From: Candidatus Dadabacteria bacterium
GTDB taxonomy: Bacteria > Desulfobacterota_D > UBA1144 > Nemesobacterales > CSP1-2
Direction of reading: 5' to 3'
DNA length: 64,000 bases
Assembly: GCA_963805855.1 (NCBI GenBank)
Contig: CAWDVW010000002.1
Span: 64,001 to 128,000 of the forward strand
Each line of letters opens with the position of its first letter. Within the stretch, counting starts at the first letter, position 1. The translations under genes and the position numbers were made by a program. Shown one piece after another: positions 1-17,364 of this stretch. The notes beneath the pieces are model-generated. The model was not told the origin of the DNA. It made no database searches and saw nothing but the letters and a program-made list of their open reading frames with translations.

Positions 1-2972
1 TACTTGGCGCTCCGGTCGCAGATACCAATAAAACAATAGGTTTGCTATGTCTTCACTCCAGGAAAGCTCACAGATGGAGCAATCACGAAAAAAAAACCAT
101 AAAAGACGTAGCCAAATACTTCGGTATTGCCATAAAAATTGCACGTGCAAAAATAACAAATAAAAAGAACGAAAAGAAAATTAAGAAAAACCTAAAGAAA
201 TTATCCAAAACAACTAGATATGAAACTATTATAAAAACAATAACTCGCAGGGTCCATCAGTCGATAGATTTACGAAAAGTTCTCAATTATGCAGTTGCAG
301 CAATGAATAAAACTATTGACGGGGCTGAAAGCGTTTCAATTTACCTTGTTGAGGGAAAAGAGGCTGTTTTGAAGGGCTACAGGGGCTATCCTAAATGGGC
401 GGTTCAGCGTGTAAAGAGGATTCCATATCCCAGAGGATTTACGTGGAAGACAATCATCGAGGGAAAACCCATTTATGTTGATGATGTGGAAAAAGATCAT
501 ACAATTGGTGCAATAGGAAGAGAAATAGGGACTAAGAGTTATGCATCAATGCCGATTACAGTTAATGGTAAGCCGATTGGTTCCATAAACATTAATTCTT
601 ATCATAAAAATGCATTCAATGAAGGAGAGCTCCAGCTACTAAAACAGGTATCACGACAAATAGCAGTAGCGATAAAAAATGCCAGTCAGGCAAATAAGCT
701 TGAAAAAGCAAAATCGGATTTAGAAAAAAGCATTTTAGAACGAACTGAAGACCTGATAAATATGAATAAAGAGTTGGAGAAAGAAATTACTGAGCGTACG
801 GAAATTGAAAAACGACTGCTCATCACTCATCATGAATTGGAAAAGAGGAATCGATATGAGAAAATTGTTAGAGCTATTACTCAAAGCGTTCATCAATCCT
901 TAGCCCTCCGAGAAGTGCTTCAAAATGCTGTAGAATCGATTTGTAGTCATATAGACGTGGTAGAACATATTTCAATATTTTTAGTTGATGGGAGTGAAGC
1001 AGTGATGAGGGCTCATAAGGGTCATCCTGATTGGTTTATTGATAGGGTAGCACGCATTCCCTATCCAAAGGGTTTTACGTGGAAAACTATCATTGAGGGA
1101 AAACCAATTTATTGTCCTGATGTTGAAAAAGATACTGTGATTGGCCCAGCTGGTAAGGAAGTCCGAACCAAGAGCTATGCTAGCATGCCATTGTATTGCG
1201 AAGGTAATGCAGTTGGTAGCATAAATGTACATTCCCTTTTTAAAGATGCGTTTGATAGAGAACACCTCAAATTACTTAATGATGTTGCTAAACAAATTGA
1301 GGTAGCAATAAAACATGCCAAGCAGGCGGAAGCAATCAAGGAAAGTAAAGAAAAGTATCTAAAGCTGATTGAGCAATCAAACGATTGGGTATGGGAATTT
1401 GACACAAATGGCTTTTTCACATATGTAAATCCAAAAGTGCGCGAAATAATTGGGTACGAACCAGAAGAATTAATAGGTAAAACAACATTTGATTTTATGT
1501 CTTCGGGGGAAGCAAAACGATTTTCTGATTTGGCAAACCCCTATTTTTCGGAGAAAAAACCATTTAAGCGTCTTGAAAAACAACTGATTCATAAGGATGG
1601 GCATCAAGTTACCCTGGAAGTTAGTGGAACACCTATTTTTGATAGTCAAGGAGATTTCAAAGGCTATTTGGGAGTAGTCCAGGATATTACCGAACGCAGA
1701 AATCAAGAGAAGACGATACACCATTTTGCTATGCATGATTATCTGACCGATCTTCCTAATCGCCGTCTACTTGAACAGGAATTAGCACGATTAACAAATC
1801 GAAATAACTCCAAACAAAATGATGCGTTGGTCATAATAGACTTGGACAACTTTAAAATAATAAACGATACGCTAGGTCATTTTGCTGGAGATCAGCTTTT
1901 GAAGGATCTGTCAAATGCTTTAGCAAGAATTATGCGCCCTAGAGATTTGCTGGCAAGAATGGGTGGTGATGAGTTTGCTATACTTCTCCAGAACGTTTCT
2001 CAGAAAGAGGCTAAGAAAATTGTTGGTAGGTTATTTAAGTCAATAAACAAGTTTGAATTCAATATCAAAGGTTATAATTTGAATCTTAACTGCAGTATGG
2101 GCATTGCCCTCATCGACGGCGAATCAAGCATAGAAGAAATTTTGCAAAATGCTTATTCGGCTCTTTACCAAGCCAAGACCGAGGGGAAAAACCAGATAAT
2201 CCATCATATTACAAGCAAAAACATCATCAAGATTAAGCAGGCTAGCAATTGGAATATCCGCATCAAAGAAGCACTCAAATTTGATCGATATACAATAGAA
2301 TTTCAACCGGTGGTACGGCTGGATACTGAGAATACGGAGTTTTTCGAGGCATTGATCAGGATGAAAGCCAAAAATGGTGAAATTGTATTTCCAAAAGCGT
2401 TTATTCATGCTGCTGAACGCTATGGCTTAATATCAGAAATTGACCGGTGGATGTTGGAGAAAATAACGCATTTTTTAGGTAACCATCCGAGTACGAATCT
2501 TTCCATAAACCTTTCAGGATCGAGCTTAAGAGATAAGTCGCTTCTTTCATTAATCGAAAGATATATCAAGGAAGGTCGAATATCTGCCGATCAATTAATT
2601 TTCGAAATCACCGAACTCTCCGCTATTAGAGATTTAAATAGCGTCCAAAAATGGATGAATAAATTGCAGATCTTAAATGCCAGATTTGCCCTGGATGACT
2701 TTGGTACTGGCTTCTCATCATTCAAGCACTTGCAGATCCTTCCAGTTGATTTTGTCAAAATAGACGTTTCCTTTATCTCTAAAATCAAAGAAGATCTGTC
2801 ATGCTATGCGATTGTAAACAGTATCGCAGCTGTAGCACATGCTCTTGGTAAAGAAGTTATCGCCGAGGGGGTAGAAAATCAAGAAATTATTAAAAGCCTC
2901 CGGGAGCTTAAAATTGAATTTGGGCAAGGGAAATTCTGGAAGTCAGCGAATCTGGGTTCTCTAACATCATAA
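1..2972 (+). CDS. Multi-GAF/PAS diguanylate cyclase-phosphodiesterase (GAF-GAF-PAS-GGDEF-EAL), 5'-truncated by the window edge
   Basis: The frame is open from base 3 (LGAPVADTNKTIGLLCLHS, the tail of a further GAF), so the TTG at 42 is probably not the start. Two near-duplicate GAFs, a PAS, RPRD...MGGDEF, and the EAL-domain motifs FEALIR, DDFGTG, KID and AEGVE. Confidence 0.93.
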   Translation, partial: LGAPVADTNKTIGLLCLHSRKAHRWSNHEKKTIKDVAKYFGIAIKIARAKITNKKNEKKIKKNLKKLSKTTRYETIIKTITRRVHQSIDLRKVLNYAVAAMNKTIDGAESVSIYLVEGKEAVLKGYRGYPKWAVQRVKRIPYPRGFTWKTIIEGKPIYVDDVEKDHTIGAIGREIGTKSYASMPITVNGKPIGSININSYHKNAFNEGELQLLKQVSRQIAVAIKNASQANKLEKAKSDLEKSILERTEDLINMNKELEKEITERTEIEKRLLITHHELEKRNRYEKIVRAITQSVHQSLALREVLQNAVESICSHIDVVEHISIFLVDGSEAVMRAHKGHPDWFIDRVARIPYPKGFTWKTIIEGKPIYCPDVEKDTVIGPAGKEVRTKSYASMPLYCEGNAVGSINVHSLFKDAFDREHLKLLNDVAKQIEVAIKHAKQAEAIKESKEKYLKLIEQSNDWVWEFDTNGFFTYVNPKVREIIGYEPEELIGKTTFDFMSSGEAKRFSDLANPYFSEKKPFKRLEKQLIHKDGHQVTLEVSGTPIFDSQGDFKGYLGVVQDITERRNQEKTIHHFAMHDYLTDLPNRRLLEQELARLTNRNNSKQNDALVIIDLDNFKIINDTLGHFAGDQLLKDLSNALARIMRPRDLLARMGGDEFAILLQNVSQKEAKKIVGRLFKSINKFEFNIKGYNLNLNCSMGIALIDGESSIEEILQNAYSALYQAKTEGKNQIIHHITSKNIIKIKQASNWNIRIKEALKFDRYTIEFQPVVRLDTENTEFFEALIRMKAKNGEIVFPKAFIHAAERYGLISEIDRWMLEKITHFLGNHPSTNLSINLSGSSLRDKSLLSLIERYIKEGRISADQLIFEITELSAIRDLNSVQKWMNKLQILNARFALDDFGTGFSSFKHLQILPVDFVKIDVSFISKIKEDLSCYAIVNSIAAVAHALGKEVIAEGVENQEIIKSLRELKIEFGQGKFWKSANLGSLTS

Positions 2973-3177: not shown

Positions 3178-5076
3178 TCAGCCCCCCAAAACTTGTGAAA
3201 CGACATCTTTAATTTCATCAATCGTAAAAGGCTTTTTTATAAATGAAAACGCGCCTTCTGAAATTAACTTGTCTACATTGTCTGCTTCAGGCGTACCGCT
3301 AATAATAACTGCAACAGAACTGGGATCAAAGATCTTCATCTCTCTTAAGATTTCAATGGCACCTTTTCCATTGATTGTTAAATCTAAAAAAATAATATCA
3401 TAGTGATTCTTCATGATTAGTTCAATTACGACATCACCACTTTTGGCAGTGTCTACGTTATGACCGGAATTTACAAGTGCCTCCCTTATAAGATCACACG
3501 CAAATTCTTCATCATCTACTACAAGTATGTTCCCTTTCCTCCTCGTTCGTACGGCAGTATCCAAATTTGCTTCATCCGATGAACTGATTTCGTCAGAACT
3601 TGAGATTCGTTGGATATTTGGAAGCCATATGGTAAATGTTGTTCCTTTCCCAAGTTCACTGCTTACTTCAATTCTTCCTCCATGCCTCTCGATTATCGAA
3701 TAAACCACAGAAAGACCAAGGCCTGTCCCGGACCTTGAATCATCGCTTTTCTTTGTCGAAAAAAAGGGCTCAAATATTTTCTGTAGATTTTTCTTAGGAA
3801 TGCCAATCCCATTATCTGAGAATTCTATCCTTACATAGTCACCATCAATGTCAGTTTTTATCGCTATCGCCCCGCCTTCGCTCATTGCATCCCTCGAGTT
3901 GAGCGCCATGTTGATGATCACCTGTTGTACCTCCCCCACGTTCATAATAATAGGAGGAACCTTTCCATAATGACGTATTAATTGTATGCCGTCCGATTTA
4001 AAAGTATGTTCGATTAGTTTGATCGCATCTTCGATCACCTCCTCTAAAGACGCAAGCTGCTTTTTGTTATCCCTATTTTTAGAAAACGATAACAGAGTCG
4101 TTACAAGGTCTGACGCTCTCGCTGCAGCCTTTTCCACAACCTTTAAGTCCTCTCTTATACTCTCAATACTTGTCCTTGAAAAGGCAAAGCTTGTATAACC
4201 AATGATCCCGGAAAGAATATTATTAAACTCATGGGCAAGACCCGTTGCAAACTGACCTACCGCGGACATTTTGGCAGATTGAATCACTTGGGCCTCTAAT
4301 TTCCTTTTTTCAGTTATGTCTTCTGTCACTACTGTCAGACCAAACTTCTCACCAGTCTCAGAATCAACCAGAGGTGAGAGAACTATTTCTAGGTACTTGT
4401 CATCAAACTTTATAATATGATTTGTGCTGTATGAATCGTAATGAAGTATCTGAGGAATAACAGTCTTGAAATTGATACCCGCGATGAGATCGTCCAGTCT
4501 CGAGCCAATACAATCCTTCCCAAAAATTTTCAAAGTCTGAGTGTTAGCACTTTTTATTATCAGGTCCATATCGGTTGTCATTACACTCTCATGGGTGCTG
4601 AACAAAATATTGTTAAGTTCTCGAGTTCTATCCCTGATCTTAAGTTCAAGATTGGCATTAATGTCTTGAAGTTCTTTCATCAGACGTCTGTTTTCCTGAA
4701 GTAGTTCATACTTTTCAACAGCATGCTTTATGATGCTTTTTAGTTTATTAAAGTCCAGAGGCTTGGATAAATAATCAAATGCGCCGTGCTTTACAGCCTC
4801 CACGGCGGTTTCCAGGGAGGCATACCCTGTCATGATGATAACAGGTATGTCCGGATCAAACGTACGGATTTTATCGAGAAGATTTATGCCGTTCTTCTCA
4901 GGCATCCGGATATCTGTAAGGACAACGTGAAAGAGATCTTCTCTCAGGAGATTGAGAGCCCTATCACAGTTCAGAGCGGTAATTACTTCATAACCTTCGT
5001 TTGAGAAGATGTCAGAAATAATTTGTAAAATTAATTGTTCGTCATCAACCACTAAAAGTTTTCTTTTCGCCTTCAC
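3178..5076 (-). CDS. Hybrid sensor histidine kinase (REC-PAS-HisKA-HATPase-REC)
   Basis: N-terminal receiver (VVDD, TDIRMP, KP), H-box AHEFNN, DNGIGI, FEPFFSTK, GTGLGL, and a C-terminal receiver. Confidence 0.93.
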   Translation of the reverse strand: MKAKRKLLVVDDEQLILQIISDIFSNEGYEVITALNCDRALNLLREDLFHVVLTDIRMPEKNGINLLDKIRTFDPDIPVIIMTGYASLETAVEAVKHGAFDYLSKPLDFNKLKSIIKHAVEKYELLQENRRLMKELQDINANLELKIRDRTRELNNILFSTHESVMTTDMDLIIKSANTQTLKIFGKDCIGSRLDDLIAGINFKTVIPQILHYDSYSTNHIIKFDDKYLEIVLSPLVDSETGEKFGLTVVTEDITEKRKLEAQVIQSAKMSAVGQFATGLAHEFNNILSGIIGYTSFAFSRTSIESIREDLKVVEKAAARASDLVTTLLSFSKNRDNKKQLASLEEVIEDAIKLIEHTFKSDGIQLIRHYGKVPPIIMNVGEVQQVIINMALNSRDAMSEGGAIAIKTDIDGDYVRIEFSDNGIGIPKKNLQKIFEPFFSTKKSDDSRSGTGLGLSVVYSIIERHGGRIEVSSELGKGTTFTIWLPNIQRISSSDEISSSDEANLDTAVRTRRKGNILVVDDEEFACDLIREALVNSGHNVDTAKSGDVVIELIMKNHYDIIFLDLTINGKGAIEILREMKIFDPSSVAVIISGTPEADNVDKLISEGAFSFIKKPFTIDEIKDVVSQVLGG

Positions 5077-7579
5077 TATCCCTTCCTGAAATCTCCTGAA
5101 TAATGGGCAGTTCTATTATGAAGTTCGTTCCCTTTTCGGTATCACTGTAAATTACAATGTTCCCATTGTGAGCTTCAATTATTTTATAGCTCACTGAGAG
5201 ACCAAGCCCGGACCCAGTGTTTTTTGTGGTAAAGAAGGGGTCAAAAATCTTGGGGAGGTCTTCTTTTTTGATACCAGGCCCATTATCCGCGAAACTTATA
5301 AATACTTTATTTGAGCTTTCTTTTTGAAATCCTGTATTAATCCTGAGTTCACCGCCACCGGGCATCGCTTGAATAGAATTCATTATCACATTAATGAATA
5401 CATGCCATATGTTATTTAGATCAGCCATGATTTTGGGAACCCCGTAATCCAGATTTTTAATGACTTCGATCTTATTATCAACAATCTGTTTTCTGGTTAA
5501 GGTCAAAACTTCATTGATTAAGCTGTTAACATCAACAAGTTCAAAATTCGTCGATCCAGGCTTTGAAAACTTAAGCAAGGCATCTATCAACCTGTTTGTG
5601 CGATCAACCTCGTGCTTAATGTAATCAAGGTATTGTCCAATTAGCGGAGATTTTTCCCGGGTCAAATTTTGTGATAAATAATACCTTGCACCTTCTATGA
5701 TGTTTAAAGGGTTTCGTATTTCATGCGCAATTCCTGCCGCAAGTTGTCCTACAGCAGACATCTTCTCCGCCTGGAGAAGCTGCGCTTGTGTCTCTTGAAG
5801 CTCTCTATTTTTTTCTTCTAACTTGTTTACATAATCCTCGACCAATTTAAAAGCAAATGCGTTTTCAATAGCAATGGCAGTCTGGTTTGCCAGTGTCTTC
5901 AGTAGCTTTAAATCATAGCTTGTATACATCAGTCCGGATTTCTTTTCTCCCAATGAAAGAACACCTACCAGCTCGTCCTTGAAAAAAAGGGGGATAATTA
6001 GTGAAGCCCTCAAAACAGAGAAGGTTTTCTTCAATTCTTCGCCATACATATAATATTTTGGCTCCGCAATCAAATCCTCTTTAAACACTTCTTTTTTCGA
6101 GCTATTTAATAAGAAAACTAACTTGTTATCGCTCTCGATGCTTAAGCCATTTTTCTCCAAATCATCAATCGTAGTAGAATGAATCTTGTAGCCATTTGTG
6201 CTTCGATCGAAAAGTAGAAGGGAGGCTGAGTTGATGAACATGGTTTCTGTAATAGTTTTAATAACTTTATTGGCTATTTCGTCAATATTGAGAATTGACG
6301 TCATGGCGTCGCTAAGATCAGAGATTGTTTTATTGTAGTCATACCTTTTTCTAAAGAAAGCAGTATCTAAAATGCTCTGGATTCGATTTCTGAGTGGATT
6401 AAGTGCTAACACAAGAAAAGCACTTAAGATCAGAAAGAAAGCGGGATTTTTCCAACCGCCATGTTTGGCAAAAGCAATATTGAAACCAAGAACCATAAGA
6501 GCAAAAATTCCTAACACCAATCCCGTCAGGGAGCCATAGACTAGTGTCTTTTGAATGATAACATCTATATCGAAGAGTTTATGCTTTGCGATAGCATAGC
6601 CTATTGAAAGAGGGAAAAATAAGACGAGTATTGCTATGTAGTTAATATTACTAGCTCCATAAAAAACCACTATCAAAGCGGCTAGAGCAGGCAGAAAATA
6701 ACCTAATACTGCACCTATCAACACCACTTGCGCCCTCTGTTTATTCAACTCAGAATCCGGTTTTAAATAACTTACAGTTACAGAAGCCAGCATTGTCAAC
6801 GCCGCGAAAATCAAATAAAACCACATGACTGTATCTACCCTTATCCACATAGTAGGGTTATTAAGATAGATCAGTTGTAAAATGAATAATAAAGATGAAA
6901 ATAAAAAAGGAAGCAATATTATACGCGGATACTTTTTAAATAATTTCTTCTCATTAGGAAAAACTAAGGATAGATAAATCAAAAAAGAAGGGCTAAAAAT
7001 CTGAGCCAGATAGGACATATTCACTGAATATATGAGCGAATAGTTGGTTTGATAATCAAAGTCTTCTATAAACCAAATCCCGATTGAAGAACAAAGCATC
7101 AAGAAGACCTTACTGGAAAGTAAATTCGGTTTTAAAAGATAAACTAAAGCTCCTATTGTAAGAAAAATTAAGCCAGTAACAAATTCTATCCCAAATACTT
7201 GCAAATAATCGCTAATTGTAAACTTCATGGAAGGAAACGTGGCTTCGATGAAATTATTATCTCTTGAAATTAGATAAGTTATTGGGGTACCTATCGGCTT
7301 CTCAGCGACGATATCATAGACCCCATACGAGCTTGATACTTCCCTTCCATCCACCTTTATAATTTGATCGTAAGATTCCAATCCGGATTTTCCACGCTGC
7401 GACCAACTGGGAAGGGTAACCTGACTAACCAATAAGTTATTATAAAGTAAAAAACCGGGGAAAGGCTTCCCAATCGATCTGAATCCCTGAATTAGGCTAT
7501 TGACACTAAGAGCAAGGGATAAACCAATTATTATATACGCTATAACCCTAAATTTATCTCTATAAAAAAAATAACTCAT
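5045..7579 (-). CDS. Membrane histidine kinase: extracytoplasmic PDZ-like domain, multi-TM region, GAF, HisKA/HATPase
   Basis: N-terminal TM, PDZ-like GLESYDQIIKVDG, many hydrophobic helices, GAF (IIPLFFKDELVGVLSLG), AHEIRNP, DNGPGI, GSGLGL. Confidence 0.9.
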   Translation of the reverse strand: MSYFFYRDKFRVIAYIIIGLSLALSVNSLIQGFRSIGKPFPGFLLYNNLLVSQVTLPSWSQRGKSGLESYDQIIKVDGREVSSSYGVYDIVAEKPIGTPITYLISRDNNFIEATFPSMKFTISDYLQVFGIEFVTGLIFLTIGALVYLLKPNLLSSKVFLMLCSSIGIWFIEDFDYQTNYSLIYSVNMSYLAQIFSPSFLIYLSLVFPNEKKLFKKYPRIILLPFLFSSLLFILQLIYLNNPTMWIRVDTVMWFYLIFAALTMLASVTVSYLKPDSELNKQRAQVVLIGAVLGYFLPALAALIVVFYGASNINYIAILVLFFPLSIGYAIAKHKLFDIDVIIQKTLVYGSLTGLVLGIFALMVLGFNIAFAKHGGWKNPAFFLILSAFLVLALNPLRNRIQSILDTAFFRKRYDYNKTISDLSDAMTSILNIDEIANKVIKTITETMFINSASLLLFDRSTNGYKIHSTTIDDLEKNGLSIESDNKLVFLLNSSKKEVFKEDLIAEPKYYMYGEELKKTFSVLRASLIIPLFFKDELVGVLSLGEKKSGLMYTSYDLKLLKTLANQTAIAIENAFAFKLVEDYVNKLEEKNRELQETQAQLLQAEKMSAVGQLAAGIAHEIRNPLNIIEGARYYLSQNLTREKSPLIGQYLDYIKHEVDRTNRLIDALLKFSKPGSTNFELVDVNSLINEVLTLTRKQIVDNKIEVIKNLDYGVPKIMADLNNIWHVFINVIMNSIQAMPGGGELRINTGFQKESSNKVFISFADNGPGIKKEDLPKIFDPFFTTKNTGSGLGLSVSYKIIEAHNGNIVIYSDTEKGTNFIIELPIIQEISGRDSEGEKKTFSG

Positions 7580-7597
7580 TTTAATTCAAAAAGAGCA

Positions 7598-7675
7598 TTA
7601 ATCCCCCTTTTCTACCAGTTTGCCTGCTGGATATTCATCTACAAAGCCGGTTCCCCCAGTTAACATTGCTTTCAT
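7598..7675 (-). pseudogene. Remnant N-terminus of an NAD-dependent epimerase/dehydratase (extended SDR)
   Basis: Translates MKAMLTGGTGFVDEYPAGKLVEKGD*, matching the typical SDR start MKxLVTGGTGFVGxxL...L.ExG with the last Gly lost, then a stop. Confidence 0.55.
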
Positions 7676-8179
7676 TTCTGCATCGTTTAAGACTTTGCGC
7701 TAGGACTTACATCCTGAAAATTCACATCCTTTCTTTTCAGAAGATCAAACTCTCCTTTAGCTTATTTAAAACCTCTAGTATCATATCTAAACTATATTTA
7801 GCATAGCAAAGATAGGGAAATAGCGAAAATTCCACCAGCCACATGCAGAAACATCTTAAGAAATTCAATTAGTATCATCGCCTTAGCTTTCTCATTAATT
7901 ATTATGCTTTCTACTTCGGCGACCCGATTAACATCGATTATTTGATCCCTGAGGTGTTAGGCATTGGTCCCCATCCTTTCGAGTAACTCACCGTTTCGGT
8001 GGTACGAAATGTACCTCAAAAACTATTGTTTAACGACTAAATAATAATCCAATTTTCGTGACATGAAGAACCCCCGTAGCAAGCTGCAGGGAATTCGCTA
8101 GTTAAATAAGATAAGCTCAATAAATTCATTAATAACGCTAACATAATTCATCAAGAAGACCGGGCAAGAATGTTTTCAT

Positions 8180-9820
8180 TCAGGCAGCAGATGATGGACG
8201 GGGAAAATGACAATGATCCGAATCTAGAATATTGAATTCTTTTCCAACTTTTTCTAAAACCTCTAGAGTCTTATCCAAATCTTGTTTAGTATGGGTCGCC
8301 ATAACGCTTAATCTGAAACGTTCTTCTCCCTTTGGCACAGCAGGATAAGGAACGGCGCTCAGATAAATCCCTTCCTCATATATCCTTTTACTCATTTTTC
8401 TGAGCGTCAAACCATCTCCAATAATGATTGGAATTATAGCCGATTCAGTGTTTCCAACATTAAAGCGCAGGGATAGAAGATTTTCTTTCAAATATTTTAT
8501 ATTTCTCCATAAGTTATCATGAATTTCTGTCTCACTCTCCATAACTTCAATAGCTGCTAGTGCCGCTGCTGCTACAGCGGGTGGCAGGTTTATGGAGAAA
8601 AACCCTGATCTTGCATAGTACCTCAAGTAATTTACAACTTCACTTGAAGAAGCAACAAAGCCACCTACGGCACCTAAAGCCTTACTCAAGGTGCCCATAA
8701 CTATATCTGCTTTACCCTCTATTTTAAAATGACTGGGTGTACCTTTACCCCTTTCTCCTATGACCCCGGTTGCATGAGCCTCGTCGACCATGACTTTTGC
8801 ACCGTAGCGGTGAGCGACTTCAATTATTTGGTCAAGAGGCGCGATATCACCGTCCATGCTATATACACCATCAACTACTACTAATCTACCGTTATATTTC
8901 TTCTCTGTTCTTTCCAACACATGCTTCAGACTATTGATATCGGAATGTTGAAAAGTTCCAAAAAGACCGCCGCTAAGCATACAACCATCTATAATGCTTG
9001 CATGTGCAAGCCTGTCTATAATTACCGCATCTCCTTTCTTTACCAAAGCAGGTATGCACCCTACGTTAGTTGCATATCCTGTGGGGAAGACTGCCGCATC
9101 CTCACAGCCTTTCATCCGGGCTAATTCAATTTCCAGTTCTCTATGCACATCGTATGTCCCTGAAAGAAGTGCTGCACCCTCTGAGCCAGTTCCGTATACC
9201 CTGGTCGATTCTAAAGCAGCTTTTACTACTTTTGGATGCGTTGAAAGACCCAGATAGTTGCAACTCCCCATCATGATCATTTCTCTCACTTCACCAAAGT
9301 TTTTATCAAAAACCTCAACTCTATTTTTACAAGCTGTTATGAGAGGTATTCTGTATTTATTAAAGCCCTTCTGGATAATATCTTCAAGAAATTCGCCGAA
9401 TGGTTTCGTCTTGTAAAATAAGTCTTTGTCTGAATTATCGACAAAATCTGCCAACGAGAAGTTATCAGAATTTATTTTTGTAGAACATTCCACTGTGGAT
9501 TCCTCTAACCTCCTCCTATCTGCTTCGAACATACTCTTAAATTCAACTCCCATCCCGGAATGGTCTCCTAATCTCAATTTCGCGGCATCCTTAATCCATC
9601 TAATCTCGCAATATGCGATTAGGGCTGTAATGTCTTTGGGAAACCTAAATTCAAGGAGTATTTTTGTTCCAGGCTGTAGTAGTTTTTTGGATTCAACAAA
9701 CATTCCATAGGGAGAAATATCCCTTACATGTCCACTTAATTGGCCATCGGCTCTTGACGCAACTTTAATGTCCGAAAAAGTGGTCCTTGTGCACCTTCTG
9801 CGTTCTAAGCTCAATGTCAT
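8180..9820 (-). CDS. PilZ domain fused to a PLP-dependent alpha-oxoamine synthase (BioF/Kbl/Spt/CqsA family)
   Basis: PilZ motifs ERRRCTR and DISPYG; AOS motifs SCNYLGL, AHASIIDG, DGVYSMDGD, DEAH and GTLSKALG (PLP lysine). Confidence 0.9.
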   Translation of the reverse strand: MTLSLERRRCTRTTFSDIKVASRADGQLSGHVRDISPYGMFVESKKLLQPGTKILLEFRFPKDITALIAYCEIRWIKDAAKLRLGDHSGMGVEFKSMFEADRRRLEESTVECSTKINSDNFSLADFVDNSDKDLFYKTKPFGEFLEDIIQKGFNKYRIPLITACKNRVEVFDKNFGEVREMIMMGSCNYLGLSTHPKVVKAALESTRVYGTGSEGAALLSGTYDVHRELEIELARMKGCEDAAVFPTGYATNVGCIPALVKKGDAVIIDRLAHASIIDGCMLSGGLFGTFQHSDINSLKHVLERTEKKYNGRLVVVDGVYSMDGDIAPLDQIIEVAHRYGAKVMVDEAHATGVIGERGKGTPSHFKIEGKADIVMGTLSKALGAVGGFVASSSEVVNYLRYYARSGFFSINLPPAVAAAALAAIEVMESETEIHDNLWRNIKYLKENLLSLRFNVGNTESAIIPIIIGDGLTLRKMSKRIYEEGIYLSAVPYPAVPKGEERFRLSVMATHTKQDLDKTLEVLEKVGKEFNILDSDHCHFPRPSSAA

Positions 9821-10113
9821 TTTAGATATCCCCTCTCACTCTATGTATTCTCAAACATTATAAGAGCGGTTGTTGAAAGCTATTACTCCCCTCTCCGAGA
9901 AGTCCAAATAATTTCGTCCGCTACACCTTCCTGCAACCGTCTATCATAGAAGACAAAGATTCTATATCAAAAATCTTAGAAAATTGCTTCAATTATAACT
10001 TTCTTTTAACTATCAGGAAAGTAATAATTGAAGCTTGTAGGGATATTAAACAAATAATGAAAATCACATTTTCTATAATAACGACAAAAAGTTACATTTT
10101 ACCCAATATCAGA

Positions 10114-11982
10114 CTAAAGTTGCTCTTCGTGGAACCATGCTCTTTGCCTTAGGCTACTGGAGCCGGTCCATGTCTTAATAATTGAATCCAATGTAAACAC
10201 AAATCTACCTTGAATAGCAAATGGAGCTTTTGGAGGATCGGCCGCTCCTATTGATGGAACTACCCCTTCAATAAACGCTCTTTGACTTTGAAGATCATCT
10301 AGACCATCACCCGCTATCACGACGCTACCTATTAGATCAAACCAGAGGTGATCCAATATCTTCCAGGTAAGAGTACCCTCTAACTCGGTGCCCAGAAATC
10401 TATTGACTTTGGGCAAGGGTGTTACAGGATCGAGACTTAAAGCATCTCTTTCATCCACCCATGCGAATAGGGCTTGAGGCGTAAAATAAAGGGGATCAAG
10501 TAATTTCACCGTGGTCCAAGCCCTGACATAGCCCGAGTTTATTACACTGCCCTCGACCGCATATATATTCGGTATCATATGTTTAAATAAGAGGTTATCG
10601 ACTGTATAAGCGTTATTGAAGAAAATTGCACTTCCTTCTAATCTATCAGGGGTTTTTGCATCATCACCACTAGCCCAACCAAATTCAGCAACAACCAGAT
10701 CTATAAAGCTGGGGGCTGGATCATAACCGACCCTGGCGGCAAGAAGAAAATTTTCAGGCGATATATCGATCTCGTTACTGCCTAAGACGAGGGGTAAGGG
10801 TTCTTCCAGGTTATTTACTTTTCCAAAAAGGTCCTGGAATTCGAAAGAAGCAAAAAAGCGATCAAACTTATACTTAGTATATAATGACCAATTTACAGTG
10901 TTATCGAGGTCTCCGGTAAGCCCGCTACTAACATCAAATCCGTTTTGATTTACAAGAAATATGTACCCCCCAAGCTCCAGGCTCTCACCCTGATATAAAG
11001 AAGCGAGCCCGACCTCCCATCCTTTTCCGTCCGCTCCATTAGCTATTGTTTTCCCCTGGCTGAGTCTGTCCAGTACGACGGAAAAAAGTAGATTTTCCCA
11101 GCGCTTATCCAGCAGAGCAAAAGGCGTAGTGTCAAACTCAAATCTATCCACGATACTCCCAAAATCCTGATCAGGCATGCTCCCTGCATTGTTTAAGATT
11201 CCGAGCCCCCAGTCAAAAGGCTGTCTCCCCACCCATAGTTCGCCAATTTTTATCCCCCCGATAGGAATCCCGGCCACCATGTAAAGCGACCTGACATCGA
11301 CCAAATCTATATCTGTATTTACCGGCGAAAGTGTCTCTCCCGTGAACGTATCTGTCACCTCCCTAAGAATTGAACCGCGAAACGAATCTCCCGGGCTCGG
11401 GGCTTCAAAAAATTTTCCTGACACGCTATCATCGCCCAAACCACCCCAAATTATATTTTTTGCAATATCGAACTGACTACGAAGCGACAGATTATCGGTT
11501 ATTTCGATCATGGGAGAAAGAAGCAATCTTGAATCGACAAAAAAAATGTCATCGTCTTGACCGGGAACTGCGCCCGCAAATGTAGCATCTTTAAACACAA
11601 ACCCTCTCGTTCGATAATAGCTCGGAAAATCGGTGTTAAATTTTATTCTTCTCAACAATGGACTCAGGTAATCTAACTTTCTTTTCACAATATCTTCGAC
11701 TTTTTTCTCATCAACTCCCTTTTCGGTTTCCAGATCTTTAATCTTTTCTTTGTCGGCTTCTCTACTGGCTTCGAGTTCCTCAATCTTTCTACGAAGCTCT
11801 TCGATCTGCGCCTGACTCCGTTTCTGTATTTCTTCGATCATCTTCTGATTCTGCTTCTGAATTTCTTCCACCTGCTCTCTAAGAGCATCGATTTCCTCTT
11901 TCGGAGTTTGTGCCTCTGAGCTTCGGTCACATATCGTGATTATTAACAATAAACTGACGGCTAATATTAAAATTACCTTCAT
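10114..11982 (-). CDS. Putative outer-membrane beta-barrel/porin with N-terminal coiled coil
   Basis: Likely start MKVILILAVSLLL (signal peptide) at 11982, then an E/K/Q-rich coiled coil, then amphipathic strands (VGRQPFDWGLGI, GTELEG). Confidence 0.65.
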   Translation of the reverse strand: MKVILILAVSLLLIITICDRSSEAQTPKEEIDALREQVEEIQKQNQKMIEEIQKRSQAQIEELRRKIEELEASREADKEKIKDLETEKGVDEKKVEDIVKRKLDYLSPLLRRIKFNTDFPSYYRTRGFVFKDATFAGAVPGQDDDIFFVDSRLLLSPMIEITDNLSLRSQFDIAKNIIWGGLGDDSVSGKFFEAPSPGDSFRGSILREVTDTFTGETLSPVNTDIDLVDVRSLYMVAGIPIGGIKIGELWVGRQPFDWGLGILNNAGSMPDQDFGSIVDRFEFDTTPFALLDKRWENLLFSVVLDRLSQGKTIANGADGKGWEVGLASLYQGESLELGGYIFLVNQNGFDVSSGLTGDLDNTVNWSLYTKYKFDRFFASFEFQDLFGKVNNLEEPLPLVLGSNEIDISPENFLLAARVGYDPAPSFIDLVVAEFGWASGDDAKTPDRLEGSAIFFNNAYTVDNLLFKHMIPNIYAVEGSVINSGYVRAWTTVKLLDPLYFTPQALFAWVDERDALSLDPVTPLPKVNRFLGTELEGTLTWKILDHLWFDLIGSVVIAGDGLDDLQSQRAFIEGVVPSIGAADPPKAPFAIQGRFVFTLDSIIKTWTGSSSLRQRAWFHEEQL

Positions 11983-12371
11983 GTCTAAATGTTCTAATCT
12001 CTTAAAAATATAAGCCACTATAATATATTTATTGTATGATTTCAAGCAATACTTTGGTTTCAGTTTTGAATCAATATAGATGCACAACAAATTTTTGTTT
12101 AAGTGCAAAGAGCATGATGCTTTGAGAAACCTCCAGGGTTTTGGCCTTGTGTTAATCATATTTGTGTTGATAAATTATATAATTCATGGAAGCACAGGTT
12201 AGAAACGCGCTAGATTACAAAATCGATAATGATTTTAACATTGATTCCTGCGCTCCCATTGTTACAGCAACCCTATAGTCTTAAATGCCGGCAAAGCGAG
12301 TTTTTATAAATCGGGTTTCTTTCCCGTCAGAATCTTAGTTGATCCTTAATGCCCAGGGAAAAGAGTTTAAT

Positions 12372-13484
12372 TTATGAATTGGTAAGGTTGAATAAAAGAT
12401 TTTTCAGATAATTCGAGCCAGCTCGTTCAATATTAGTTCGAGCCTTTGTCCATACCTCATTGGGGATACTAATAAAAATTTCGATTATCTCTGGATCAAA
12501 CTGCCTACCGGAAGATTGCTTTATCAAATCTATCGCCTCTTCGTAAGAAATTGCTTGGCGATAAGAACGGCTGGTAGTCATAGCATCAAATGTATCAACA
12601 ACTGAAAATATCCTAGCACCTAATGGAATTTCCTTCCCGGATATTTTGTGGGGATAACCGGTTCCATCAAAATTTTCGTGATGACTCAATACTATTTCAG
12701 CCGCTTGCTCCAAGAACTTGAACTTTTTCAAAAGATTATACCCGTCAATAGGGTGTTTCCTCATTATTTCAATTTCCTCGTCCGTAAGCTTTTCGGGCTT
12801 CAATAGAACATGGTCTGGAACTCCTATTTTCCCAATATCATGGAGAAGAGCCCCCTTCGCTATACTCCCCAAATCCGAATTCGGTACGCCAAAATTCTCA
12901 GCAAGGATTATCGTATATTCAGTCACTCGATATGAATGGCGACCCGTTTCACATTCCCTCATATCGAGAGCCGAGATCATTGCTTCAAGTGTGTCTGCAT
13001 AAAGACTGATCAATTGATTTGCCTGTGTTGTCACCCTTCTCTCAAGATTTTCCTGATAATCCTTGATATCACTAATCAATCTCGATCTCTCAACCGCACG
13101 ATTTATTACCGACTTTACACTACTATTATTAAAAGGCTTGACAATATAATCATATGCCCCTTCCTTAAGTGCCAACCTTGCGTATTCGAATTCTTTCGAT
13201 GCAGTTACAATTATTATCGAGATATCGGGATAGAGTTTTTTAAGACTCCTCAGTGTCTCAATTCCACTCAGTTTTGGCATATGGATGTCCAAAAGAACTA
13301 CCTCGTAAAAGTGTCCATCTCTGAACTTTTCTAGACACTCGATTCCATCCGAGACACTTTCACTTGCAAAACCCTCCTCGGCTGCAATTTCCTTCAGCAA
13401 ATCTGCCAGGACCTTTTCATCATCAACGATAAGTATTTTCTCTCTATTCTTATGTCTTTCGTTTGTATGATTTATTTGATACAT
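12372..13484 (-). CDS. Response regulator with HD-GYP c-di-GMP phosphodiesterase domain
   Basis: Receiver (IVDD, LDIHMP), LLHDIGKIG, HHENFDGTGYP. Confidence 0.93.
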   Translation of the reverse strand: MYQINHTNERHKNREKILIVDDEKVLADLLKEIAAEEGFASESVSDGIECLEKFRDGHFYEVVLLDIHMPKLSGIETLRSLKKLYPDISIIIVTASKEFEYARLALKEGAYDYIVKPFNNSSVKSVINRAVERSRLISDIKDYQENLERRVTTQANQLISLYADTLEAMISALDMRECETGRHSYRVTEYTIILAENFGVPNSDLGSIAKGALLHDIGKIGVPDHVLLKPEKLTDEEIEIMRKHPIDGYNLLKKFKFLEQAAEIVLSHHENFDGTGYPHKISGKEIPLGARIFSVVDTFDAMTTSRSYRQAISYEEAIDLIKQSSGRQFDPEIIEIFISIPNEVWTKARTNIERAGSNYLKNLLFNLTNS

Positions 13485-13688
13485 TGCCGAACATTCTATT
13501 TCATATTATCAATATAAAAATTTAGACGCCCCGTGCCGTGTATTTATAATCTGTTACTCGGGAATTTAAACGTTACCCGCTATCATAAAATGTGAAACGT
13601 CAAGCTCCGTCCCGTCACAAATATAATAAGTTTAATGTAAGATGGACCTGATTGCTAAGAGACCATCAAGAATATAAGCACCCATACC

Positions 13689-14597
13689 TCAACTCTTCTT
13701 TTCGAAAAAACTAATTTGATTTTTCCCCTTTCTTTTTGCATTGTATAGAGCCTCATCAGCCCGAGCTATGATTTCATCCATGGACTGTTCAGTTGCCATT
13801 AATGTGGCTCCAGCAGAAGCTGTAATGTTCACGACAACTTCTTCATCTAGTGTGATAGGCAAGGAAGACAATCCCATCTGTAACCGGGTGATAATTTCTT
13901 GAGCGGTATCCGCGGTTGTTTGCGGTATGCAGATAAGAAATTCATCGCCCCCATATCGACAAATAGAATCATATTTTCTGAGGTTGCGGGTAAGGTACTT
14001 CGCCGCCTCTTTCAATACTTTATCACCCGACAAATGACCGTATGTATCATTAACATCCTTCAGATTATCCAGGTCAATTAACGCAACTACGCACGGCTCT
14101 CCTTTTCTTAATGCTCTCGCATGTTCCCTTGAAAGGGTTTGGAAAAACGGTTGACGAGTAGGAACGCCAGTCAGAAAATCAATCTTAGACATATTTTCAT
14201 GGAGCTTATCTTTTAACTTGAGGAGTAACGTAGTCAATTCTTGTTCCTTTTCACTTAAGACATCGTAATCTTCTTTTGTGATAGTATCATCGAGTTTTGA
14301 TTTTAACGCCAGGACTCTGGCAATATCATGCATTTCTTGATGGGCCTTATTCACCAAGAGAAAATCTTCATCGTTTCCAAAGTATGTAGAAGTTTCGTCA
14401 CGATGCCATATGCCAAAACCGCACTTGAGATAGCCATCTTTCAATAGATACAAATCGCTTATCGGTAATCCGCATAAAAGACTACGGTGCCAATCCTTAA
14501 GGCATTTGCTGTGTTCCGCAAGCCCGTGCTCGATTGATCGAATATGAGATCGCGCTGCATCTTCATTCAACTGATTATCAGAGAGTTGCGGGATCAT
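13689..14597 (-). CDS. CZB (zinc-binding) domain diguanylate cyclase, DgcZ/YdeH-like
   Basis: CZB ligands H..W, CGFGIW and HQEMH; RKYD I-site followed by RYGGDEF. Confidence 0.88.
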   Translation of the reverse strand: MIPQLSDNQLNEDAARSHIRSIEHGLAEHSKCLKDWHRSLLCGLPISDLYLLKDGYLKCGFGIWHRDETSTYFGNDEDFLLVNKAHQEMHDIARVLALKSKLDDTITKEDYDVLSEKEQELTTLLLKLKDKLHENMSKIDFLTGVPTRQPFFQTLSREHARALRKGEPCVVALIDLDNLKDVNDTYGHLSGDKVLKEAAKYLTRNLRKYDSICRYGGDEFLICIPQTTADTAQEIITRLQMGLSSLPITLDEEVVVNITASAGATLMATEQSMDEIIARADEALYNAKRKGKNQISFFEKKS

Positions 14598-14971
14598 TGC
14601 TGATGATACCTAATTGACAATAAGAACTAAGACCATTTTTGTTTGACACCCATACTATATTATAAGACCTATATCCTCCTCCGATCAACTAATTTGATAA
14701 ATCTGTTATTACGGTTTCAAAAAATGAGTACATAATATAGTTTCCCTGAGATGGCTCGTATTCTGGAGGAGGCGAAACCGCGTGAAATAGCATACCCAAT
14801 AAGAGAAAAATTAGAAGAATAGAAACAGACAGTCAGCTCTGTCGGCCGCACCTACATTATTCGGGACGACACCAACCATGTTGTCATTACAGATAATTCG
14901 ATTCAACTGGTCCTGAGCTCAGCGACGGATCGAAGGGCTCATACTTTCACATCGCCTTTAATTCGCGAGGA

Positions 14972-15628: not shown

Positions 15629-15941
15629 ATTTTTATCCCGGGCCCGTGATCGCATAAAATTGCCTTCGGCAATCACGAAGCATAACACTTTTTGAGATGG
15701 ATCCCGGTGCCTGCTCCACATAAAAGCCTGACGGGTCAAATATTGATATTACATGAAAAATTTAACGTTGCTCATTTCAACATTATAAATTTGAACACAC
15801 TCGGGTAAGTGAATCAATCGATGAATCGATGTGAAAAACAAAACAAAGGGGACGTGATAGTATGAGAGGTGACTCCTCGTAATCTGTTAGACTTGGATTA
15901 ATGGCAAAAGGAGTTAATCCAAAACAGAAGGAGGAATCACC

Positions 15942-17205: not shown

Positions 17206-17269
17206 CTAGAGGAGTCACCTTATCTTCTATTGACTTTCACCTCTATAGGCAACCCTTTGATTCTTTAAA

Positions 17270-17346
17270 TGGCGCGCCCGGAGGGAGTCGAACCCCCGAC
17301 CTTCGGATTCGTAGTCCGGCGCTCTATCCATCTGAGCTACGGGCGC
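17270..17346 (-). tRNA. tRNA-Arg(ACG)
   Basis: Cloverleaf GCGCCCG/CGGGCGC, anticodon loop CT-ACG-AA, TTCGA T-loop, CCA end. Confidence 0.96.
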
Positions 17347-17364
17347 ACAGGGTTATTAGAATAT

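Follow-up and report, generated by a model that had tools for sequence, protein, structure and literature searches.

An alpha-oxoamine synthase (AOS) joined to a PilZ domain, and encoded beside two kinases, was found in an uncultured, sediment-type Candidatus Dadabacteria bacterium within a stretch of 64,000 nucleotides (the window). The 546-residue protein is almost certainly a true PilZ-AOS fusion, and its sequence features suggest a soluble two-domain enzyme, in which a conserved, roughly 65-residue linker connects a canonical PilZ domain to a catalytically complete, PLP-dependent AOS of an uncharacterised subfamily. Throughout a clade of Thermodesulfobacteriota/Dadabacteria the fusion is conserved, and its gene opens a conserved cassette that also encodes a polytopic GAF sensor kinase and a REC-HK-REC hybrid kinase. 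That the AOS is gated by c-di-GMP and works together with this kinase cassette is a plausible reading, which falls a little short of being probable. The features discussed below are collected in Table 1.

Table 1. Positions of the fused gene, its domains, its partner genes and the c-di-GMP genes in the window.
Feature	Positions	Strand	Description	Basis
PilZ-AOS gene	8180..9820	-	Single 546-aa ORF, ATG start	ORF list; Pfam PilZ + Aminotran_1_2
PilZ domain	9482..9805	-	Residues 6-113; RxxxR (R8..R12), D34-I-S36-P-Y-G39	Pfam, motifs, models, Foldseek
Linker / subfamily-specific N-terminal AOS extension	9287..9481	-	Residues 114-178; conserved INSD...LADF motif	Alignment
AOS core	8216..9286	-	Residues 179-535; H273, D346, H349, K380	Pfam, NCBIfam, PDB phmmer, Foldseek
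Non-coding gap, AOS to kinase	7580..8179	.	600 nt; relative L001 holds a Zn-dependent alcohol dehydrogenase gene here	blastn/tblastn against L001
Partner 1: 844-aa polytopic sensor kinase	5045..7579	-	GAF, HisKA, HATPase	Pfam, hydropathy
Partner 2: 632-aa hybrid kinase	3178..5076	-	REC-HisKA-HATPase-REC; overlaps the 844-aa kinase gene by 32 nt	Pfam
REC-HD-GYP c-di-GMP phosphodiesterase	12372..13484	-	HD, HHE and GYP intact; kept in L001 only	Pfam, motifs
GGDEF diguanylate cyclase	13689..14597	-	RxxD I-site; kept in L001 only	Pfam, motifs
GAF-GAF-PAS-GGDEF-EAL protein	42..2972	+	GGDEF, EAL, DDFGTG and EGVE intact; lineage-specific context; frame open to the first window bases, so start uncertain	Pfam, motifs

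The fused gene and its family

A sequence-only reading of this DNA had claimed, giving no strand, that both c-di-GMP motifs of a PilZ domain lie in the N-terminal part of the protein and that this domain is joined in frame to a complete AOS. Both points are borne out, on the minus strand. A Shine-Dalgarno-like run (GAGAGGGG) lies 9–16 nt 5′ of the ATG, and a database protein (P0001) is 100% identical to the 546-residue product. The run RRRCTR forms residues 7–12, with the RxxxR motif at R8 to R12, and DISPYG forms residues 34–39. The latter fits [D/N]hSxxG, with Ile35 as h, which is the refined form of the motif given in the available part of a PilZ survey preprint (10.1101/814665). The Pfam PilZ family (PF07238) matches residues 6–108 with 45.9 bits (gathering cut-off 22.5, E 7.8e-12), well beyond chance, and the match takes in profile positions 1–99 of 102.

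The predicted fold agrees with the profile. Folded alone, the PilZ domain (pLDDT 76.6) is predicted to contain six β-strands (residues 13–22, 30–35, 39–43, 53–59, 66–77 and 89–97) and one long helix (about 99–116). Nine of the ten best Foldseek matches of this model in the PDB are PilZ domains, most of them c-di-GMP complexes, and the remaining one is an uncharacterised Legionella protein. The matches include 4xrn, MotI (5vx6) and Alg44 (4rt0/4rt1), with a best E of 1.2e-4 and TM-scores of 0.63–0.73. Judging by these motifs and matches, the protein probably binds c-di-GMP. A docking prediction of AOS residues 125–540 against PilZ residues 1–119 with two c-di-GMP gave a score of 0.00 (mark 0.32), which is uninformative either way.

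The remainder of the protein is occupied by the linker and the synthase. In the linker, S118 is invariant in the alignment, and D119, L123, D125 and F126 are at least 90% conserved; its INSD...LADF motif is also found in two PilZ-less relatives (P0023 and P0081). Pfam Aminotran_1_2 (PF00155) matches residues 180–522 with 193 bits (E 8.6e-57). H273 lies within HASIIDG, D346 and H349 within DEAH (residues 346–349), and K380 at the end of GTLSK (376–380). We take K380 to be the PLP lysine, and H273, D346 and H349 to be the AOS His/Asp/His triad. The full-length model has a pLDDT of 84.7.

The same fusion is widespread among its database relatives. Of the 120 clusters that match best, 67 combine PF07238 with PF00155 (counted by hand), so this is a recurrent single-gene architecture, neither a one-off nor a mis-joined pair. 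A C-terminal GNAT domain (PF00583) is added in 25 of these 67 clusters, and PF04339 in one (P0060). All 31 aligned members have H273, D346, H349 and K380. Both c-di-GMP motifs are intact in 25 of the 31, the window protein included, while the other six retain the domain with degenerate motifs. Across 26 PilZ-positive sequences R8, R12 and G39 are invariant, and R7 and S36 are at least 90% conserved. Three members of the clade (P0023, P0028 and P0047) have no PilZ domain, due to either loss or truncated gene calls. Together with the degenerate motifs, they suggest that the enzyme can apparently work without c-di-GMP. An exhaustive phmmer search with the PilZ domain alone against 1.84 billion representatives gave 135 matches at E ≤ 1e-3, mostly stand-alone PilZ proteins of 100–250 aa; with so few long proteins, it is unsuitable as a census of the fusion.

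No paper describing a PilZ-AOS fusion, and nothing joining an oxoamine synthase with c-di-GMP, was found in a literature search in which many candidates were judged by title or abstract. The words "aminotransferase" and "enzym" are absent from the available part of the PilZ survey preprint. Likewise, the accessible text of PMC11334938 has no mention of fusion or fused, GNAT, acetyltransferase, Dadabacteria or Omnitrophota, and PMC12204192 proved irrelevant.

The kinase cassette and its genomic context

The first partner of the PilZ-AOS gene encodes a kinase with a large membrane region. Its hydropathy profile has one TM segment, an extracytoplasmic stretch of ~90 aa and about seven more TM segments before the GAF domain, and no recognised extracytoplasmic ligand-binding family was found in it by Pfam. 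An identity as the XrtA/PEP-CTERM kinase PrsK (TIGR02916) was considered and rejected, as the score of 120.1 falls below the cut-off of 300, although the matched part (residues 229–825) runs from the membrane region through GAF and HK.

Both kinases accompany the fusion at related loci, a context that the sequence-only reading had not remarked on. At all seven of these loci (L001–L007), the gene downstream of PilZ-AOS includes an orthologue of the sensor kinase (43–72% identity), which makes eight of eight with the window. The hybrid kinase has an orthologue (57–89% identity) at L001–L004, L006 and L007, which are all six loci that reach that far, making seven of seven with the window. The genes of the cassette are spaced by 0–8 nt at L002, L004, L006 and L007. 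This adjacency suggests a signalling circuit that has so far gone undescribed, and functional coupling of PilZ-AOS to the kinase pair is rather likely, if less so than c-di-GMP binding.

The arrangement in the window is less compact. In the 89%-identical relative L001, the gene that occupies the position of the 600-nt gap encodes 408 aa, and its best model in Pfam and NCBIfam searches is L-threonine 3-dehydrogenase (126 bits, where the Tdh cut-off is 380). The gap and this dehydrogenase insert suggest that operon coupling is looser in the window's lineage. The gap matches no Rfam family, and none of its candidate terminators is convincing. An Rfam scan of positions 7000–10500 at E ≤ 1 returned no riboswitch and two sub-threshold chance matches, and a promoter and terminator scan gave counts no higher than those in shuffled sequence. 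The cassette encodes no DNA-binding output; its kinases could serve another purpose and be merely co-regulated.

The sequence-only reading had drawn support from GGDEF, EAL and HD-GYP genes around the fusion. These genes are present in the window with their motifs intact, but this neighbourhood is common only to the window and L001. No c-di-GMP genes are found in the annotated flanks of loci that are 55–57% identical (L002 most fully, and parts of L003, L006 and L007), which hold housekeeping genes, and a family-wide c-di-GMP neighbourhood is thereby ruled out. In the window's own lineage, the REC-HD-GYP protein is a possible phospho-acceptor of the cassette kinases. The idea that the two IS110-family genes are copies of one element was rejected.

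Kinship of the synthase and its possible product

The AOS domain resembles several known enzymes without reaching the cut-off of any. All AOS-family NCBIfam models match the window protein at E 1e-60 or better. Its scores are 384.2 on the BioF equivalog TIGR00858 (cut-off 426.45) and 380.2 on the Kbl model NF005394 (cut-off 460), both nearly as high as on any other model; the remaining ones are those of the Spt models NF047600 (372, cut-off 640) and NF047599 (343, cut-off 500), a second Kbl model, TIGR01822 (331.3, cut-off 493), the third Spt model, NF047603 (283, cut-off 670), and the ALAS model (282, cut-off 339). In a phmmer search of the PDB, serine palmitoyltransferase (SPT) of S. multivorum is the best match with 292 bits; Kbl and ThAOS, the Thermus BioF/Kbl enzyme (7poa, 290 bits), are level with it. 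By Foldseek, the AOS model has TM-scores of 0.88–0.94 to SPT, Kbl, ThAOS, ALAS and BioF, and the full-length model matches S. multivorum SPT (8guh) with a target-normalised TM-score of 0.94.

A tree of AOS domains, which had been proposed with BioF, Kbl, Spt and CqsA as landmarks, was realised in part. It contains 61 domains and was built by a quick search, from a biased sample whose loci were gathered through query-derived peptide patterns, and known enzymes are represented through NCBIfam cut-offs and context-labelled loci in place of characterised reference sequences. A clade of 30 rows (SH-aLRT 98) unites every one of the 23 PilZ-positive rows but P0060 with five degenerate-motif rows and three PilZ-less rows. 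A larger group of 37 rows (89) takes in P0060 and a FemAB clade linked to kinases (97) as well, and two BioFs in biotin context (L032 and L042) fall outside this group.

Acyltransferases recur beside or within these relatives. The fused GNAT region matches only generic "GNAT family N-acetyltransferase" clusters of about 370 aa, which give no hint of its function. In the PilZ-less sister clade, the AOS gene is accompanied by genes for a FemAB-like acyltransferase and an HK (L008, L011 and L012) or by PAS-HK and REC genes (L009). The FemAB-like partners match no NCBIfam family, and the fused C-terminus of P0060 is 43% identical to these stand-alone proteins. Such PilZ-less AOS, FemAB-like and kinase cassettes occur in Omnitrophota and Verrucomicrobiota. 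Synthase, acyltransferase and kinase are thus far combined in both AOS clades, across three phyla or more. Sensor-region identities are 42–68% and 35–51%, with each AOS clade retaining its own type of kinase sensor. Among up to three annotated ORFs per side, an HK or REC gene was found at none of nine annotated loci outside the 37-row group. The window gene has no acyltransferase domain, and none was found across the 64 kb. A tblastn search of the window for remnants of GNAT, FemAB-like, Zn-dependent alcohol dehydrogenase and epimerase genes gave none at E ≤ 0.01, and the best E in a second search was 1.1.

How such a cassette might operate can be proposed as follows. Binding of c-di-GMP at RxxxR and DxSxxG would reposition the PilZ domain against the AOS dimer. 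This shift would switch the reaction in which an acyl-thioester and an amino acid undergo Claisen condensation to an alpha-amino-ketone, and in most relatives the fused acyltransferase would then N-acylate the new amine. The product may be a diffusible or membrane-resident signal that is read by the co-encoded kinases, in a synthase-receptor cassette like CqsA/CqsS and LqsA/LqsS. The nearby REC-HD-GYP phosphodiesterase may be the end point of the phosphorelay in the window's lineage, which would loop the circuit back onto c-di-GMP. The sequence-only reading had named an aminoketone, a sphingoid base or a diffusible signal as the product. The conserved kinase pair and the fused or adjacent acyltransferases of relatives shift weight toward a diffusible or membrane signal, with a lipid still a candidate. 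That the cassette kinases sense the AOS product is a tentative proposal, more doubtful than gating and joint working as such. More speculative again, and unlikely when taken whole, is an undescribed, self-contained module for cell-cell or envelope signalling, in which c-di-GMP directly gates an amino-ketone autoinducer synthase, a fused GNAT or FemAB-like domain N-acylates the autoinducer in most relatives, the cassette kinases act as receptors, REC-HD-GYP provides feedback in this lineage, and the PilZ-less cassettes of Omnitrophota and Verrucomicrobiota form a second branch of one new signal family.

Alternatively, the product could be an envelope lipid. An SPT-like AOS would make a long-chain amino-ketone, which the GNAT of relatives would N-acylate as bCerS acylates 3-ketosphinganine; c-di-GMP would tie lipid remodelling to sessile life, and the kinases would monitor or control the envelope. 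The best sequence and fold matches, both to S. multivorum SPT, favour this, as does the large polytopic membrane sensor of the kinase. The succession of AOS and acyltransferase also mirrors that of bacterial Spt and bCerS in the available part of PMC11087976. In addition, an NAD-dependent epimerase-family gene (Pfam) lies two genes upstream at L002, ORFs at L003, L004 and L006 match it in size and position, and more distant AOS relatives (L013, L038, L044 and L039) adjoin epimerase, desaturase or lipid-kinase genes. However, all three Spt equivalogs are missed by far, and Kbl and ThAOS score as high as SPT. The window contains no ACP, acyl-ACP synthetase, bCerS-like or CerR-like gene, chorismate synthase stands between the L002 epimerase and the cassette, and the FemAB-like proteins are an unrelated second type of acyltransferase at the same position in relatives. 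On this evidence, an envelope lipid is an unlikely product, to about the same degree as the full signalling module.

It could also be that the PilZ domain is no longer a c-di-GMP sensor and serves as a docking or oligomerisation module, like PilZ-fold proteins whose partner binding needs no nucleotide; the membrane kinase or another protein might be what it holds the AOS to. The six aligned members that keep the domain without its motifs are consistent with such a role, and so are the lack of c-di-GMP genes kept around the family and the presence of PilZ-fold proteins with trivial c-di-GMP binding (3dsg and 7lkm) among the Foldseek matches. But both motifs are intact in 25 aligned members, among them the window protein, the best structural matches are mostly c-di-GMP-bound, and if the domain bound no nucleotide, the invariance of R8, R12 and G39 would be difficult to account for. 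Such a role in place of sensing is quite improbable.

Least probable is that the enzyme is simply the organism's BioF or Kbl, for biotin synthesis or threonine/glycine metabolism (compare the dual-function Thermus enzyme), with an acquired PilZ domain and a coincidental kinase neighbour: its near-top BioF and Kbl scores, its match to 7poa and the AOS-dehydrogenase order at L001, which echoes the known kbl-tdh gene order, are set against the missed cut-offs of both enzymes, a dehydrogenase far below the Tdh cut-off and absent from the window, the placement of biotin-context BioFs elsewhere in the tree, a kinase adjacency conserved down to 43% identity, and fused GNAT or FemAB-like domains, which have no role in a biotin or Kbl pathway. 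As the sequence-only reading had observed, there is also no bio or tdh gene nearby: Pfam finds none among the 47 neighbouring window ORFs scanned, and this includes BioA, BioB, BioC, BioD and BioH.

If the reading of a c-di-GMP-gated AOS that works with its kinases is correct, a PilZ domain on a soluble, PLP-dependent enzyme that forms C–C bonds would bring the biosynthesis of small molecules or lipids, too, under direct control by c-di-GMP. The logic of the cassette points to an unstudied family of signals or lipids derived from amino-ketones in uncultured Dadabacteria, Omnitrophota and Verrucomicrobiota. The system is readily testable, as the protein is predicted to be soluble, the fusion marks the ligand, and a candidate receptor is encoded alongside. 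Natural PilZ-AOS-GNAT fusions of 919 aa further show the next-acting acyltransferase.

Comparison with known systems

PilZ domains are known mostly for acting on motility, polysaccharide secretion and transcription. Comparable systems include cellulose synthase BcsA and alginate Alg44, in which a PilZ domain also sits within a biosynthetic protein and which are both among the Foldseek matches (4p00 and 4rt0). These are a membrane polysaccharide synthase and co-polymerase, whereas the output domain in the window is a putatively soluble, PLP-dependent, C–C bond-forming enzyme with its PilZ domain at the N-terminus. The location of canonical PilZ domains with RxxxR and [D/N]hSxxG in biosynthetic proteins is described in the available part of 10.1101/814665.

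BioF, Kbl and the promiscuous Thermus ThAOS (7poa) share the fold and catalytic residues of the window protein and score nearly equally, while the window protein lies below the BioF and Kbl cut-offs, lacks bio and tdh neighbours in the window and stands apart from biotin-context BioFs in the tree. An AOS joined to a GNAT/FemAB-like domain is known from mycobacterial BioF2-type proteins, whose domains follow each other in the opposite order and which are not known to carry PilZ. The bacterial Spt/bCerS/CerR ceramide pathway provides the best sequence and fold match; Spt is a soluble cytoplasmic AOS, and an N-acyltransferase follows the AOS in relatives of the window protein. In contrast to that pathway, the window protein carries PilZ, is encoded in a cassette with kinases, scores below all three Spt cut-offs and has no ACP, bCerS or CerR genes with it in the window.

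In its gene arrangement, PilZ-AOS resembles the autoinducer systems CqsA/CqsS of Vibrio and LqsA/LqsS of Legionella, a likeness in how the cassette may work and not one of membership. In the accessible text of PMC5289986, each of these systems pairs the gene of a PLP-dependent, AOS-family autoinducer synthase with that of a sensor histidine kinase in the membrane; the PilZ-AOS gene has such a kinase gene beside it, too. The synthases themselves are distant: the window protein scores 202.1 bits against the CqsA/LqsA-type model NF005526 (cut-off 428) and reaches only 113 bits to the CqsA structures 2wk8/3hqt, compared to 292 for SPT/ThAOS. To our knowledge, neither CqsA nor LqsA carries a PilZ domain. 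The kinases differ as well, since compared to CqsS and LqsS the window kinase contains a GAF domain and about eight hydrophobic segments and has a REC-HK-REC protein as its partner, and relatives of the cassette add an acyltransferase.

Domains, fold and distribution of the PilZ-AOS protein

The PilZ-AOS protein, a PilZ domain fused to an alpha-oxoamine synthase (AOS), is encoded by a single 546-aa ORF that starts with ATG and is preceded by a GAGAGGGG run resembling a ribosome-binding site. The sequence-only reading had observed such a fusion, and it is confirmed by the one ORF, its two Pfam domains and structure-model matches; all of the motifs it quoted (RxxxR, DISPYG, DEAH and GTLSK) are found in the protein. 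The predicted ligand-binding and catalytic residues are shown to be intact, and domain identity is established.

Features of the window and of the PilZ-AOS protein
Feature	Position	Strand	Remarks
GAF-GAF-PAS-GGDEF-EAL protein	42–2972	+	signatures intact
REC-HisKA-HATPase-REC hybrid kinase (632 aa)	3178–5076	-	32-nt overlap with 844-aa kinase gene
Sensor kinase (844 aa)	5045–7579	-	directly downstream of PilZ-AOS gene; GAF, HisKA, HATPase
PilZ-AOS gene	8180–9820	-
681-aa ORF	10114–12159	-	directly upstream of PilZ-AOS gene
REC-HD-GYP	12372–13484	-	signatures intact
GGDEF protein	13689–14597	-	signatures intact
HAD-family hydrolase	14972–15739
IS110-family transposase	15942–17000
Three ORFs, including those of 313 and 433 aa	17751–18692, 19241–20542, 20573–22132	-
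IS110/IS116-family transposase	52090–53154	-
PilZ domain	residues 6–108		Pfam 45.9 bits, cut-off 22.5, E 7.8e-12
RRRCTR motif	residues 7–12
DISPYG motif	residues 34–39
INSDxxxLADF motif	residues 116–126 (nt 9443–9475)
Aminotran_1_2 domain	residues 180–522		Pfam 193.4 bits
DEAH motif	residues 346–349
GTLSK motif	residues 376–380

A whole-protein AlphaFold2 model built on 31 aligned sequences (mean pLDDT 84.7) has as its best Foldseek match in the PDB the serine palmitoyltransferase (SPT) of S. multivorum (8guh, target-normalised TM 0.94), followed by values near 0.9 for Kbl, the Thermus BioF/Kbl enzyme, ALAS and BioF. Modelled alone, the N-terminal 119 residues (pLDDT 76.6) form six strands and one long helix, which is the canonical PilZ core according to the Galperin and Chou preprint (10.1101/814665). 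Of the ten top PDB matches of this model, nine are PilZ domains, including 4xrn, MotI (5vx6) and Alg44 (4rt0/4rt1), and most of the nine are complexes with c-di-GMP; the remaining one is a Legionella protein that has not been characterised. The absence of any PilZ HMM or structure match had been named as grounds for rejection, and both kinds of match were obtained.

A word-indexed protein search matched 7995 proteins at E ≤ 0.001. A hand count from the precomputed Pfam annotation finds PF07238 and PF00155 together in 67 of the best 120 clusters, and 25 of these 67 have a C-terminal GNAT domain (PF00583, total about 919 aa). A single listed cluster, P0060 (933 aa), has a FemAB-like domain (PF04339) in place of the GNAT. 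The window protein was aligned with 30 relatives, a subset drawn from those listed proteins that cover the N-terminus and are 526 aa or longer. RxxxR and [DN]x[ST]xxG are both kept in 25 of the 31 aligned members; the other six are P0075 and five that also have no Pfam PilZ match. H273, D346, H349 and K380 are kept in all 31, and among the window fragment and the 25 PilZ-positive sequences R8, R12 and G39 are invariant, with R7 and S36 at least 90% conserved. At the level of predicted domains, the fusion is shown to be conserved. Where its sources and loci are named, they are Thermodesulfobacteriota, “delta proteobacterium” and MAGs of Candidatus Dadabacteria, a class of Thermodesulfobacteriota in NCBI taxonomy. 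Public-database names for these proteins are automatic (“glycine C-acetyltransferase”, “aminotransferase class I/II-fold PLP-dependent enzyme”).

The INSDxxxLADF motif sits between the PilZ domain and the AOS core. It is almost invariant: across the 31 aligned sequences S118 never varies, and conservation reaches at least 90% at D119, L123, D125 and F126. The motif is also present in the PilZ-less relatives P0023 and P0081, and marks an extension at the N-terminus that is peculiar to this AOS subfamily.

A conserved kinase cassette

In the 844-aa kinase, one TM helix at the N-terminus is followed by about 90 extracytoplasmic residues, some seven more hydrophobic segments and then the GAF-HisKA-HATPase region. 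One genome scan yielded 49 loci, of which seven (L001–L007, L001 being closest to the window) match from the PilZ domain onward. Each of the seven has an orthologue of this kinase immediately downstream (43–72% identity), which reaches the contig end in L005, and the hybrid kinase comes next in 6/6 loci extending that far (57–89% identity). Pfam confirms the kinase domains in L001, L002, L003 and L007, and cassette genes are spaced 0–8 nt apart in L002, L004, L006 and L007. A conserved kinase cassette is shown by these loci. The L003 cassette, in a long-contig MAG, is fragmented, probably through frameshifts: at 9971–17184, PilZ-AOS-GNAT and kinase genes are in pieces of 748, 164 and 590 aa, with the hybrid kinase intact. 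Sequencing errors that shift the frame, or genuine gene decay, may account for this splitting.

The sequence-only reading placed GGDEF, EAL and HD-GYP genes around PilZ-AOS, which is correct for the window by Pfam and signature motifs (GGDEF/RxxD, EAL/DDFGTG/EGVE or HD/HHE/GYP, intact in all three proteins). The GGDEF and REC-HD-GYP genes are common only to the window and L001 (89% identity, syntenic). Annotated flanks of the other loci, fullest for L002 and covering only parts of L003, L006 and L007, hold genes for DnaB, thiolase, chorismate synthase, a CDF transporter and the like. The conserved context is the kinase pair, not the c-di-GMP genes.

Between AOS and kinase, L001 has a 408-aa Zn-dependent dehydrogenase (best model Tdh, at only 126 bits where the cut-off is 380) and the window a 600-nt gap. 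DNA similarity of window 6649–8221 to L001 11600–14305 breaks off exactly in the interval from the AOS stop into the kinase gene's first third, despite which the kinase proteins are 72% identical over their full length. This region is a local rearrangement hot spot within the cassette.

The 681-aa ORF has a hydrophobic segment (55–82), signal-peptide-like after an internal Met, and then a charged Glu/Lys-rich stretch; its only match, to TIGR04551, is sub-threshold at 82.9 bits where the cut-off is 300. L001 carries a 622-aa ORF with 91% identity to it, and the cassette of L002–L007 does not include the 681-aa ORF. Either the window has gained 14825–17263 (about 2.4 kb, with the HAD-family hydrolase and one transposase) by insertion or L001 has lost it by deletion, since L001 has only about 30 nt there between the flanking syntenic blocks. 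The two IS110 genes are not DNA copies, as blastn of 14700–17400 against the window matched itself only. The 313-aa and 433-aa ORFs have no Pfam match at E ≤ 1e-4 and adjoin a full-length DUF4301 protein (519 aa, 694.9 bits). Otherwise the window carries chromosomal housekeeping genes (Lon, ClpX, ClpP, trigger factor, ilvBNC, RecA, CysS and others).

The AOS subfamily and its PilZ-less sister clade

The AOS falls below the cut-off of every NCBIfam model matched: TIGR01825 subfamily (393, cut-off 535), BioF (384, 426), Kbl (380, 460), three Spt models (372, 343 and 283; 640, 500 and 670), ALAS (282, 339) and CqsA-type (202, 428). By PDB sequence search, SPT (8guh) and the Thermus BioF/Kbl enzyme are level at about 292 bits, and CqsA reaches 113 bits.

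A quick IQ-TREE of 61 AOS domains (columns of window residues 130–532) covered the window, 26 loci and 34 database proteins, a sample biased toward the query, with a midpoint root for drawing only. It omitted the fragmented L003, L037 for lack of an intact ORF, the majority of the 120 proteins, and 21 other loci that were mostly either truncated or redundant Atribacterota and Cloacimonadota. A 30-row clade (SH-aLRT 98) contains all 23 PilZ-positive rows except P0060, plus five degenerate-motif and three PilZ-less rows. With P0060 and a PilZ-less clade of L008, L009, L011, L012, P0116 and P0119 (support 97), it forms a 37-row group (support 89). Outside are the biotin-context loci L032 and L042 and genes of Atribacterota, Cloacimonadota, Ignavibacteria and Bdellovibrio. 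In the Ignavibacteria locus L039 a distant relative of this AOS has diacylglycerol/lipid-kinase-family, AIR-synthase-related and radical-SAM genes as flanks; ORF sizes and order suggest the same surroundings in L040 and L041, and the three AOS genes form one clade, another uncharacterised AOS context.

In its gene orders, the PilZ-less sister clade repeats the cassette logic: REC-LuxR, 120-aa ORF, AOS, FemAB-like, HK, REC-HK (L008); PAS-HK, REC, AOS (L009); HTH-REC, AOS, FemAB-like, FkbM methyltransferase, HK (L011); and FadL, AOS, B12-radical-SAM, FemAB-like, HK (L012). Nine loci from outside the 37-row group were annotated (L013, L014, L025, L032, L036, L038, L039, L042 and L044), over at most three ORFs per side and with the L036 contig ending just past the gene; none has a kinase or receiver gene within that span. 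Kinase sensor regions are 35–51% identical among L008, L011 and L012 and 42–68% among PilZ cassettes, and comparison of these regions found no similarity between the two types; each AOS clade thus travels with its own kinase. The FkbM-type methyltransferase of L011 (8414–9187) is an extra tailoring gene, and L012 adds a FadL/TodX outer-membrane hydrophobic-compound channel and a B12-binding radical-SAM enzyme (8730–9971 and 11256–12674). A product that is a modified, hydrophobic small molecule would be in keeping with these additions.

The fused C-terminus of P0060 is 43% identical to stand-alone FemAB-like proteins over about 380 aa, and the GNAT of the 919-aa forms belongs to an unrelated family (hhalign probability 0.3). 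Two acyltransferase modules therefore share the position after the AOS. In the window's lineage PilZ-AOS has no acyltransferase domain, with no remnant or separate copy in the 64 kb.

Proposed function and known systems

In the proposed mechanism, c-di-GMP would bind the PilZ domain and control AOS activity. The AOS would condense an acyl-thioester with an amino acid to an alpha-amino-ketone, which would be N-acylated in relatives. By analogy with the Cqs and Lqs systems, the product may be read by the co-encoded kinases, and in the window's lineage the relay may extend as far as the REC-HD-GYP enzyme.

The leading alternative is an envelope-lipid role, favored by the resemblance of the AOS to SPT and by the acyltransferase order, which matches Spt-then-bCerS of the bacterial ceramide pathway (PMC11087976). 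Weaker rivals are a housekeeping BioF or Kbl and a PilZ domain that acts only as an adaptor. As the sequence-only reading had claimed, biotin and threonine-dehydrogenase genes are absent nearby, with none in a scan of 47 neighbouring ORFs of the window.

No published description of a PilZ-AOS protein was found in the literature searched, and the words “aminotransferase” and “enzym” are absent from the PilZ survey preprint (10.1101/814665). A c-di-GMP-controlled synthase would belong to a known kind, the PilZ-gated biosynthetic enzymes; the attached synthase-receptor cassette is potentially new. The analogy is with the Cqs and Lqs systems, where a PLP-dependent synthase is likewise paired with a membrane kinase (PMC5289986).
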